Positions 6,079 through 7,945 of a DNA stretch of 64,000 nt are shown here, in pieces (positions within the stretch are counted from its first letter, which is position 1; each line of letters begins with the position of its first letter). Made by a program: the position numbers and the translations under genes. Under the pieces are notes generated by a model. It was not told the DNA's origin, did no database searches, and worked only from the letters and a program-made list of their open reading frames with translations. Where the stretch lies: positions 2,956,322 through 3,020,321 of the forward strand of contig OZ241894.1 of NCBI GenBank assembly GCA_965203575.1. Reading direction: 5' to 3'. This stretch comes from Candidatus Aldehydirespirator sp. (lineage in GTDB: Bacteria > Actinomycetota > Acidimicrobiia > Acidimicrobiales > Aldehydirespiratoraceae).

Positions 6079-6121
6079 TGAAGCGGGAGTGAATGCCGGT
6101 GAACGGCAGGTGAATTTGTCA
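6079..6121 (-). promoter_or_regulatory. PHO-box-like array: four direct GTGAA (minus strand TTCAC) units phased at 11, 10 and 11 bp upstream of pstS
   Basis: Plus strand reads GTGAAGCGGGA GTGAATGCCG GTGAACGGCAG GTGAATTTGTC, with units starting at 6079, 6090, 6100 and 6111. On the pstS strand these read (G/A/C)TTCACnnnnn, resembling OmpR/PhoB-family direct-repeat operators. The array lies about 100-140 bp upstream of the pstS start. Confidence 0.6.
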
Positions 6122-7336
6122 GGCCAAGTCGTCCAGTGCGTCCTGGAGACGGCCCCGGTTGAAGCTGCTGACCTTCTCAACGACGGTCACGCCCGCGCCG
6201 TCGAGCAGTATCAGGTTGGGGTTGCCGGCCCTGTAGTGGCGCCAAGCGTCGTTGGACTCGCTCCACAGCGTGTGGGGCGGACCCCCAGCAGAGGCCACGA
6301 AGCTCTCGGCCTGGGCGCGGGTGTCCGATCCGCCCACGCCTATGACGATGACCTTGCCCTCGTTGTCTCGGGCGAACTGCCCGACGGGCCCTGCTTCGGC
6401 CCGGCAGATCGGTCAATGGGGGGCCCAGAACCAGAGCAACAGGGGCGTCGAGCCGTCCACGAAGTCGCGGAGGTTGACGGTCGCTCCCGTGCGCACATCG
6501 ATCATGTCCTGAGCCGGCACGTCGGTCTCGATGACCGGCGCGGCGGTGGTTGTGGGCGCGGCGGTCGTCGTTGGTGCGGCGGTGGTTGTGGGCGCGGCGG
6601 TGGTTGTGGGCGCGGCGGTTGTCGTGGTCTCGGCTTCAGCCGCCGCGGCCGCTTCGGCTTCCGCGGCGGCGGCTGCGGCTAGCGCCTCGGCCTCGGCGGC
6701 TGCGGCTTGAGCCTCGGCCTCGGCGATTGCGGCCAGGGCGGCGGCCTCCTCAGCTTCGGCGGCGGCTAGAGCGGCTGCCTCAGCCGCCGCGGCTTGGGCA
6801 GCCGCTTCTGCTTCGGCCGCGGCCTGCGCTTCGGCGGCGGCTTGGGCGGCTGCTTCAGCCTCCGCGGCGGCTTGGGCTGCGGCTTCGGCTTCGGCGGCGG
6901 CTTGGGCGGCTGCGGCGGCAGCCTCAGCCTCAGCTTCGGCTTCGACCTCGGCCTCCGCCGCGGCTCTAGCCGCGGCCGCTTCAGCTTCGGCTTGTGCTGC
7001 TTCGGCTTTGGCGGCGGCTTGGGCTGCTTCTGCTTCGGCCTCGGCTGCCTCGGCCGCGGTTCTGGCCGCCTCCGCCTGGGCTGCTTCTGCTTCGGCGGCG
7101 GCTTGGGCGGCTGCCTCCGCATCGGCGGCAGCGGCGGCTTCTGCTTCGGTGGCGGCTTGGGCGGCTGCTTCGGCTTCGGCCTCGGCTATGAGAGCGGCGT
7201 CATCGGCCGCGCTGGTGGTAGGCGTCTCGGCGGTGGCACCGCTGCCGGAGCTTGGCTCGTCGCTGCCGCAGGCCGCGGCCGCAAGAGCCACGGCCATGAG
7301 CACGGCGACGATCCGGGCGGGGTACGGCATCTTCAT
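6119..7336 (-). CDS. TlpA/ResA-like thioredoxin-fold lipoprotein, predicted selenoprotein (UxxC), with a long Ala/Glu-rich and (TTTAAP)5 spacer
   Basis: ORFs 6413..7336(-) and 6119..6337(-) are in one frame, joined through TGA 6415..6413. The joined sequence reads ...PLLLWFWAPH-U-PICRAEAGPVGQFARDNEGKVIVIGVGGSD...LILLDGAGVTV. Lipobox LAAAACGS. TGA occupies the first Cys position of the FWAxWCxxC motif. Confidence 0.7.
6368..6407 (-). promoter_or_regulatory. Candidate bacterial SECIS: two adjacent hairpins 11-49 nt downstream of the in-frame UGA of gene 6119..7336
   Basis: Minus strand after TGA: GGGCC-GAAGCAG-GGCCC (extendable by CTGCC/GGCAG), then TCGGGC-AGTTC-GCCCGA. The paralog has hairpins at the same offsets. 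Confidence 0.5.
6537..6626 (-). repeat. 5 x 18-bp tandem repeat encoding (TTTAAP)5
   Basis: Units ggcgcggcggtggttgtg start at 6537, 6555, 6573, 6591 and 6609. Units 1 and 4 are identical and the others differ at a few positions. Confidence 0.9.
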
Positions 7337-7339
7337 CGC

Positions 7340-7945
7340 TCAGGTTAGGGCAGCAAGCTGGTCGCTGAGCCTGGCTGCGTCGAAACTGCCGGGGCTGTCG
7401 TCGGCCAGGTTGCCGCCGCTGTCGAGCAGCCGCACGCTCGAGTTCCTCCCAACACCGAAGTGGCGCCACGACTCGTTGGAGTCACTCCACAGCATGGTGA
7501 AGGTGGTTCCGGTCTGGGACACGAACCGCTCGGCATAGGCGAAGTCGTCCTGGGCGCCGATACCCACGACCTTCACCTTGCCGGCGTTGTCTTGAGCGAA
7601 CTGCTCAAGGGCCGGAGCCTCTCTCCGGCAGGTCGGTCAATGGGGCGCCCAGAACCACAAGAGCAGAGGCGTCTCGCCGCTCACCAGCGACTGGAGATTG
7701 ACGGTCTCACCCGTGTACACGCTGACCATGTCGAGGTCGGGCACGTCGCCGGCCGCACTGGCAGCGGCGTCAGGAGCTGTCGCATCGGCACCGGTGGCGG
7801 CCTCTTCGGTGGTGATCGTGACGTCGACCGACCCGCAGGCGGCTGCCACGAGGGCGACCATCACCGCGCAGACAACGAATCGGACGTTCATTCGTCCTCG
7901 GATCTTCATTCGTCCTCGGATCTTCATTCGCCTTTCGATTCTCAT
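7340..7945 (-). CDS. TlpA/ResA-like thioredoxin-fold lipoprotein, predicted selenoprotein (UxxC); start ambiguous among four in-frame ATGs (7945, 7927, 7909, 7891)
   Basis: ORFs 7637..7987(-) and 7340..7576(-) are in one frame, joined through TGA 7639..7637. The joined sequence reads ...PLLLWFWAPH-U-PTCRREAPALEQFAQDNAGKVKVVGIGAQDD...VRLLDSGGNL. Lipobox LVAAACGS. ATG 7945..7943 overlaps the upstream gene's stop (ATGA). Confidence 0.7.
7591..7629 (-). promoter_or_regulatory. Candidate bacterial SECIS: two adjacent hairpins 11-49 nt downstream of the in-frame UGA of gene 7340..7945
   Basis: Minus strand after TGA: GCCGGAG-AGAGG-CTCCGGC (7629..7611), then CTTGAGC-AGTTC-GCTCAAG (7609..7591). Both stems are 7 bp perfect. 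Confidence 0.55.

Follow-up and report, generated by a model that had tools for sequence, protein, structure and literature searches.

Two abutting hairpins as candidate selenocysteine insertion sequences in a pair of redoxin-like lipoprotein genes of Candidatus Aldehydirespirator

Introduction

What directs the insertion of selenocysteine (Sec) at the in-frame UGA codons of two neighbouring redoxin-like genes of Candidatus Aldehydirespirator sp., when each UGA is followed by two RNA hairpins in place of one? The genes, here called gene 1 and gene 2, lie on the minus strand of a 64,000-nucleotide (nt) stretch of contig OZ241894.1 (positions 2,956,322 to 3,020,321), which is referred to throughout as the window. 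An original prediction, made from the letters of the window, had proposed the hairpins as candidate SECIS (selenocysteine insertion sequence) elements, leaving open which of them, if either, is bound by SelB. The follow-up analysis supports the SECIS reading and now points to the hairpin further from the UGA (hairpin 2) as the SelB site. Judged from sequence comparison, both window elements are probably genuine SECIS elements, and about the same good confidence attaches to hairpin 2 as the predicted SelB-binding site. The nearer hairpin (hairpin 1) is more tentatively proposed to compact the spacer, a role to which we give slightly less than an even chance.

Two hairpins after each UGA

Positions in the hairpins are counted on the minus strand from the T (U) of TGA (UGA) as nt 1. 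The sequences and positions first given for the hairpins of both genes were recovered exactly (Table 1), and translation reproduced the peptides that had been said to differ over hairpin 2, APALEQFAQD in gene 2 and AGPVGQFARD in gene 1. The two-hairpin fold is both the minimum free energy (MFE) structure and the centroid of both 52-nt stretches, at -23.6 kcal/mol for gene 2 (z -3.18, 1 of 200 dinucleotide shuffles) and -24.0 kcal/mol for gene 1 (z -1.67, 12 of 200). In its MFE structure, hairpin 1 of gene 1 gains one pair, C13-G31, and its register is unlike that of hairpin 1 of gene 2. In a genome with 69% GC, a single window sequence is only modestly unusual, and it is the comparative evidence that lifts the hairpins above chance. 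In gene 2, rare codons are used in both hairpin 1 (AGA, 2.0%; GCT, 6.7%) and hairpin 2 (CTT, 3.1%; GCT, 6.7%; CAA, 9.9%).

The extension of gene 1 hairpin 1 by CUGCC/GGCAG that had also been proposed does exist, but it competes with hairpin 2 and is not general. It is impossible in gene 2, because G11 and C12 are already within hairpin 1, and it cannot covary, because it is placed on invariant Cys and Gln codons. An outer stem (nt 5-10/67-72), which encloses both hairpins in the 75-nt MFE structure of gene 2, was rejected, as 49% of its cells are paired across 79 sites, no better than with slid registers.

Hairpins in Sec-type and Cys-type homologues

The hairpins were compared between 79 distinct Sec sites and 22 Cys sites, a hairpin being defined by at least 5 contiguous base pairs (bp). 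The Cys-type homologues came from a second search; they share the WFWAPHCPxC motif, and the closest of them is 54% identical. Both hairpins are present at 69 of the 79 Sec-type sites, and the Cys-type homologues, checked for equal hairpins at the same offset, are without them (both at 1 of 22 sites). Hairpin 2 is found at 75 of the Sec sites; it always starts at nt 30-33 and carries the loop AGUUC in 60. Hairpin 1 is found at 71, in three registers. At Sec sites the windows of hairpin 1 and hairpin 2 fold with mean energies of -11.7 and -9.6 kcal/mol, against -5.1 and -4.6 kcal/mol at Cys sites (Mann-Whitney p ~2e-10 and ~3e-10, for sequences that are related to one another). In the closest Cys homologue (L110), hairpin 2 is entirely absent.

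Similarly, the stability of the hairpins exceeds what the encoded peptides call for. When Sec genes were recoded with synonymous codons drawn only from the usage of this genome, hairpin 1 went from -11.7 to -7.5 kcal/mol and hairpin 2 from -9.6 to -5.7 kcal/mol, a loss of about 4 kcal/mol each, whereas Cys genes had no stability excess (-5.1 against -5.8 and -4.6 against -5.7 kcal/mol). The stems of the family employ codons that are rare in this genome, namely CTT (3.1% of Leu), ATT (3.5% of Ile), GTT (4.3% of Val), GCT (6.7% of Ala), CAA (9.9% of Gln), and CGA and AGA (7.4% and 2.0% of Arg).

Three distant Sec-type homologues are arranged differently. Two of them (L080 and L083, from genomes G059 and G058) have a GGUC loop at nt 30-33 on a single hairpin, and the third (L082, from G047) has a GGUC loop at nt 39-42, after hairpin 1. 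From these other loop positions it appears that the SECIS position has shifted within the family.

Covariation in the redoxin family

Covariation was assessed in a gap-free alignment of 76 distinct 57-mers. Under the proposed two-hairpin structure 78.7% of cells pair, against 71.4% in shuffled alignments and at most 43% with slid partners, and the covariation score is 0.250, against 0.135 in shuffled alignments (none of 500 as high) and no more than 0.121 with slid partners. Structure-preserving covariation is thus present among the homologues, and its signal sits in hairpin 2. For this hairpin, compensatory change around a kept loop and position had been suggested from the two window genes, and the suggestion is borne out by two pairs in particular. 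Pair 33-47 is C-G in 47 rows, U-A in 25 and G-C in 1, and pair 35-45 is A-U in 52, G-C in 15, C-G in 3 and G-U in 2.

The covariation runs through synonymous positions. The third base of the Leu/Ile/Val codon 11 is U where codon 16 is Gln CAA and C where it is Arg CGA (ATT..CAA and ATC..CGA; GTT..CAA and GTC..CGA), and the third base of the Ala codon 15 tracks the middle base of codon 12 (GGG..GCC, GAG..GCT, GCG..GCG, where GGG..GCT is a wobble intermediate). When a tree was made from the flanking coding DNA, leaving out the SECIS columns, pairs 33-47 and 35-45 required at least 6 and at least 8 switches among standard pairs, and the independent contrasts (4 and about 3, respectively) all preserve pairing; unpaired control columns are uncoupled. 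In the loop of hairpin 2, G39 and U41 are invariant in the 76 rows, and U40 is present in at least 90%.

The same layout in SelD and a membrane protein

Two hairpins in tandem also follow the in-frame TGA of two other genes of this genome. In its SelD gene, hairpin 1 occupies nt 11-29 and has a loop of the CCC type, and hairpin 2 occupies nt 30-46 with the loop N-G-U-N-G, of which G37 and U38 are invariant in 57 distinct Sec-type sequences. These sequences come from this order and other Actinomycetota, and two are from metagenome-assembled genomes (MAGs) labelled Chloroflexota-like and Gemmatimonadota. Pairing is seen in 93% of cells for hairpin 1 and 98% for hairpin 2, and each hairpin has three pairs in which both sides change, such as 13-27 (C-G in 22, A-U in 21) and 30-46 (G-C in 25, C-G in 24). 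The alignment scores 0.250 for covariation, compared with 0.103 after shuffling and no more than 0.052 with slid partners, and RNAalifold recovers both hairpins. Most Cys-type SelD genes are without the two-hairpin structure.

Strong hairpins remain 3' of TGC at two Cys-type SelD loci, L270 (a Gemmatimonadetes MAG) and L170 (genome G056), unlike in other Cys-type SelD genes. These loci may be recent Sec-to-Cys conversions with a relic SECIS.

The second gene (L177) encodes a membrane protein that matches nothing in Pfam (best E 0.014) or NCBIfam. Its TGA is retained in 32 of the genus's 36 genomes and also in at least 3 other families, and some distant homologues have no stop. Hairpin 1 lies at nt 12-27 with the loop CACC, and hairpin 2 at nt 29-47 with the loop C-G-G-U/C-G. 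The protein may represent a selenoprotein family missing from catalogues.

In both SelD and the membrane protein, both hairpins beat synonymous recodings. Furthermore, a conserved G[G/U] loop is confined to hairpin 2 in all three families (redoxin, SelD and membrane protein), and the two hairpins abut in each, the linker between them measuring 1 nt in gene 2 and the membrane protein, 0-1 nt in gene 1 and 0 nt in SelD. A scan of the genome with a loose two-hairpin descriptor gave 107 matches. Nearly all were noise in the wrong frame, and the credible ones were limited to the two window genes, SelD and the membrane protein.

Single-hairpin elements of the same genome

A coding-potential scan for in-frame TGAs revealed further selenoprotein genes in the genome, encoding fdhA, a CMD/AhpD-like protein (CxxU), two peroxiredoxins and another redoxin (Table 1). 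In three of them the UGA is followed by a single hairpin with the loop GGUCU; fdhA and the CMD/AhpD-like gene have this loop at nt 22-26, the other redoxin gene at nt 24-28. The GGUCU loop is invariant in CMD orthologues, and a distant homologue holds GGUC on a fully different, compensated stem. One genome thus contains near loops, whose key G is at nt 23-25, as well as far loops, whose G is at nt 37-39, so that one SelB would serve both. The additional 14-16 nt of the far class are filled in every case by a hairpin of 16-19 nt that abuts hairpin 2 (linker 0-1 nt).

The peroxiredoxin gene at 3394492 was excluded from this comparison because its SECIS could not be settled. Most of its orthologues (L288-L312) have a GAGUUC-NNN-GAACUC hairpin at nt 40-54, arising from E-F-x-E-L/F, and the copy in this genome is without it.

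Fit to the bacterial SECIS consensus

The bacterial SECIS consensus (Zhang and Gladyshev, bSECISearch), as restated in PMC13188914, comprises a loop of 3-9 nt, an upper stem of 4-16 bp, a G in one of the first two loop positions (usually as G[G|U]), a UGA-to-loop distance of 16-37 nt, and an MFE of -7.5 kcal/mol or lower. Measured against this consensus, hairpin 2 has a 5-nt loop and a stem of 7 bp (gene 2) or 6 bp (gene 1), its loop A-G-U-U-C has G at position 2 followed by U, its UGA-loop distance is 34 nt (nt 4-37), and its MFE is -8.8 (gene 2) and -10.1 kcal/mol (gene 1). Both genes carry the element where the consensus places it, in the coding region directly after an in-frame UGA that aligns to Cys, and the SelA, SelB, SelD and tRNA-Sec that a genome must have are all present. 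Scoring against bacterial SECIS models, which had been suggested at the outset, thus places hairpin 2 within every published criterion that was tested, though no Rfam SECIS match was obtained: Rfam SECIS_1 to SECIS_5 gave no match in the window at gathering thresholds, and none in 6300-7700 even at E up to 10.

Hairpin 1 also has loop and stem sizes within the consensus; its spacing of 14 nt (gene 2) and 15 nt (gene 1) is below the 16 nt given there. G[G/U] is present in 18 of 71 hairpin 1 loops, and the two window loops, AGAGG and GAAGCAG, contain G but no G[G/U].

Proposed mechanism and alternatives

The approximately 40 nt after each UGA would accordingly be read as a bacterial SECIS of two abutting hairpins. 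SelB, loaded with Sec-tRNA(Sec) and GTP, would bind hairpin 2 while the ribosome holds the UGA in its A site, and hairpin 1 (nt 11-31) would fill the long gap between the UGA and the hairpin 2 loop, folding the spacer away. The distance from the mRNA entrance to the base of hairpin 2 could then be similar to that for a near-class GGUCU hairpin: 7-10 nt of single strand and one helix end's width in the far class, against 11-14 nt in the near class. Hairpin 1 is under selection for stability and not for loop sequence, and in the redoxin family the case for it is based on energies and on the SelD alignment.

Several observations weigh against this interpretation. There are few independent contrasts (4 and 3), and taken singly neither set attains p<0.05. 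Column-wise, hairpin 1 is 71% paired in the redoxin family with contrasts that are not significant, and its register shifts between clades (pair sums 40, 43 and 44); the weak column-wise covariation follows from this drift. RNAalifold with default scoring returned an empty structure for all 76 rows, the causes being the drifting register of hairpin 1 and five rows of other families that are highly divergent. It recovers hairpin 2 on 71 rows (-9.4) or with RIBOSUM scoring (-21.2), and it never returns hairpin 1 for the redoxin family. AGUUC corresponds to the codon pair Gln-Phe (CAG UUC), so conservation of the loop could partly be a protein constraint, and codon usage in the recoding test was taken from this genome alone. 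Finally, hairpin 1 stands at the position of an E. coli-type SelB hairpin, and position alone favours it.

Other roles have to be weighed for the two hairpins. A part for hairpin 1 in pausing is possible. It is unlikely that hairpin 1 is itself the SelB-binding SECIS, with hairpin 2 as an accessory, for instance a further roadblock that lengthens the pause or shields the mRNA. Its start at nt 11-14 and its loop at nt 18-25 do agree with the GGUC loop of fdhF and the GGUCU loops of this genome, and it is stabilised beyond protein constraint. However, its loop is unconserved in the redoxin family (AGAGG, GAAGCAG, GAG, GAGGCA and others, with the low G[G/U] count given above), and the CCC/CCU/GCC loops of SelD and the CACC loop of the membrane protein are without the G of every described bacterial SECIS loop. 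Its register also drifts, and its spacing of 14-15 nt is outside the range of the consensus.

A composite unit, in which the hairpins are coaxially stacked and both contacted by the SelB of this lineage so that neither is a mere spacer, is about as doubtful. Abutment in all three gene families (0-1 nt linkers) would suit such a unit, as would the C-terminal half of SelB, which fits TIGR00475 poorly (only positions 2-339 and 532-577 align). Yet the same SelB must serve the single-hairpin SECIS elements too, and hairpin 1 has no conserved sequence to read and varies in length and register.

Much less probable still is the idea that the hairpins have no RNA function and arise from the writing of a conserved peptide (C-R-x-E-x-P...Q-F-A) in GC-rich codons. 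CGG (Arg) and CCG (Pro) are reverse complements, so that CRxExP gives a 3-4 bp seed of hairpin 1 even in Cys homologues; the hairpin 1 region of the Cys homologue L110 reaches -10.8 kcal/mol, and AGUUC is a Gln-Phe codon pair. This idea is largely refuted by Cys homologues that have the same motif without the hairpins, by the loss of about 4 kcal/mol per hairpin on recoding, by the rare codons of the stems and by the synonymous third positions that covary with their partners.

The UGA codons, the host and the two genes

Both TGAs are almost certainly decoded as selenocysteine, as far as comparative sequence data can tell. The U of UPxC aligns to the first C of WFWAPHCPxC in Cys-type homologues for both window genes. 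In a six-frame search of 60 related genomes and this one, the family was found in 60 of 61 genomes, and every close full-length match (36 genomes of the genus) has exactly one TGA, at the active site. A TGA occupies the active-site position at about 80 homologue sites across those 36 genomes and other families, and Cys forms occur only among distant matches, below ~40-54% identity. The reading frames on either side of the TGA are open and conserved, with good coding statistics on both flanks. The genome, a single contig of 3.93 Mb with 68.8% GC, carries SelA (368 bits), SelB (281.9 bits) and SelD (358.4 bits), all above cut-off, together with a tRNA-Sec (66.9 bits; ARAGORN call SeC(tca), anticodon UCA). 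selA adjoins selB, and selD contains an in-frame TGA of its own. That the TGAs are true stops (in pseudogenes or split genes) or assembly errors is highly improbable: gene callers end at the UGA and both genes also finish in TGA, but the codon is retained at the active site in about 80 sites, with open frames, good coding statistics and the full Sec machinery.

The two genes are arranged in tandem and encode lipoproteins, both with signal peptides of the …AAAC-G type; that of gene 2 is MNVRFVVCAVMVALVAAAC. Their redox domains are 52% identical. Gene 2 matches PF08534 (3.6e-14, 53.2 bits) and PF00578 (9.4e-12, 45.4 bits), and gene 1 matches PF00578 (1.7e-6, 28.5 bits, cut-off 26), with PF08534 at 25.6 bits just under 26.6. 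Among NCBIfam models the domain has weak DsbE/ResA/TlpA matches, none of which reaches its cut-off. Gene 2 terminates at a second TGA, which is without a SECIS. Its start at ATG 7891 was inferred from the lipobox, the mechanical start of the open reading frame (ORF) being 7987. The surrounding genes are unrelated to the pair (HhH-GPD, a PstS-like binding protein and pyruvate dehydrogenase E1).

Outside the redox domains the pair differs in its linkers. Gene 1 has about 240 low-complexity residues between lipobox and redox domain (window 6537-7200), made up of long Ala/Glu/Gln-rich repeats followed by TTTAAP x5 (18-bp period, 5.1 copies), and the linker of gene 2 is short. In addition, a perfect 18-bp tandem repeat of 2.4 copies lies at 7887-7930, just 5' of the gene 2 lipoprotein start, and reads GATCCGAGGACGAATGAA on the coding strand. 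Its unit GGA(C)G...ATG is repeated, and there are therefore several in-frame candidate starts (…RMKIRGRMKIRGRMNVRF…).

Table 1. Features of the window and of the surrounding genome. Positions are those of the window unless given as genome positions; nt numbering as in the text.
Feature	Position	Strand	Description
Gene 1	6119..7336	minus	Gene 2 paralogue, lipoprotein; Sec = codon 308, WFWAPH-U-P-I-C
Gene 1 in-frame UGA	6413..6415	minus	Sec codon (predicted)
Gene 1 hairpin 1	6386..6402	minus	nt 14-30, GGGCC-GAAGCAG-GGCCC, 5-6 bp, loop GAAGCAG; -9.7 kcal/mol, z -1.95
Gene 1 hairpin 2	6368..6384	minus	nt 32-48, UCGGGC-AGUUC-GCCCGA, 6 bp, loop AGUUC; -10.1 kcal/mol, z -3.86, 0/200 shuffles
Gene 2	7340..7891	minus	Lipoprotein with Redoxin/AhpC-TSA thioredoxin-fold domain; Sec = codon 85, WFWAPH-U-P-T-C
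Gene 2 in-frame UGA	7637..7639	minus	Sec codon (predicted); aligns with first Cys of CxxC in Cys-type homologues
Gene 2 hairpin 1	7611..7629	minus	nt 11-29, GCCGGAG-AGAGG-CUCCGGC, 7 bp, loop AGAGG; -12.5 kcal/mol, z -3.06
Gene 2 hairpin 2	7591..7609	minus	nt 31-49, CUUGAGC-AGUUC-GCUCAAG, 7 bp, loop AGUUC; -8.8 kcal/mol, z -3.78
fdhA	genome 2626117	plus	Selenoprotein gene, motif NRT-U-H
CMD/AhpD-like	genome 3704571	plus	Selenoprotein gene, motif C-H-Y-U
Peroxiredoxin	genome 3394492	minus	Selenoprotein gene, motif T-A-G-U-T
Peroxiredoxin	genome 804094	minus	Selenoprotein gene, motif T-A-G-U-T
AhpC-TSA/Redoxin	genome 3081274	minus	Selenoprotein gene, 384 residues, unusual W-U-G-C motif
SelD	genome 3638726	plus	Selenoprotein gene, motif G-A-G-U-A-C-K
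Membrane protein, locus L177	genome C1:1389632-1390297	minus	222 residues, multi-pass; in-frame TGA in A-W-S-P-U-G-I-S near N-terminus

Significance

An incomplete literature search found no description of a tandem-hairpin SECIS with a conserved, covarying spacer hairpin common to unrelated genes, and the novelty is considered moderate. Such elements might constitute a distinct class in Acidimicrobiales (and, for SelD, in several other phyla) in which a sequence-nonspecific 5' hairpin is required and folds away ~16-19 nt; this generalisation is put forward tentatively, with rather less than an even chance of holding. If it is true, the class lets one SelB use both near and far loops, and it would reconcile the puzzling 16-37 nt range of bacterial SECIS spacing with a fixed SelB-ribosome geometry. 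A single genome with two spacing classes and one SelB makes the tolerance of SelB for UGA-loop distance testable by simple reporters.

There are also practical uses. The spacer hairpin offers an extra scoring feature for SECIS predictors, and if it is needed it would provide a design rule for placing a SECIS further from the UGA in engineered selenoproteins, freeing codons near the active site. Furthermore, because gene callers truncate both genes at the UGA, exported selenoprotein redox enzymes of this lineage are absent from annotations. The lineage concerned is a genus that comprises at least 36 species; the related genomes are labelled as Candidatus Aldehydirespirator, Acidimicrobiaceae or Acidimicrobiales MAGs, and some come from marine-sponge metagenomes.

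Comparison with known systems

The window genes belong to an already known selenoprotein family. Prx-like thiol:disulfide oxidoreductases (PF00578, UxxC) are among the high-confidence predicted bacterial selenoproteins in PMC13188914, and Prx-like UxxC selenoproteins were present in the Sargasso Sea survey (PMC1088965). The AhpC-TSA/Redoxin fold and the thioredoxin-like UxxC replacing CxxC are shared with that family, whereas the window genes encode lipoproteins of Acidimicrobiales in a tandem pair, one with the linker of ~240 low-complexity residues. Selenoprotein use in Acidimicrobiia has recently been reported for Actinomarina, where Rfam SECIS models failed too. The Rfam SECIS families are alike to the window elements in supposed function and differ in that their covariance models do not match.

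Hairpin 2 shares all tested criteria of the bacterial SECIS consensus described above and can be regarded as an ordinary member. That consensus describes one stem-loop and is silent on the spacer, whereas the spacer of the window elements is a stabilised, conserved hairpin that abuts the core.

In the E. coli fdhF SECIS studied by the Böck laboratory, SelB binds a GGUC loop through G23/U24, and the minimal hairpin lies 11 nt after the UGA. The window elements resemble it in the G-U dinucleotide of a small apical loop on a G+C-rich stem. They differ in that the G-U is at nt 39-40, ~16 nt further from the UGA than the fdhF-type position, in that the loop is AGUUC and not GGUC, with no bulged U evident, and in the extra hairpin of 17-19 nt that occupies the interval. 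In the same genome, on the other hand, the elements of fdhA, the CMD/AhpD-like gene and one redoxin gene are nearly identical in form to the fdhF SECIS (GGUCU at nt 22-28).

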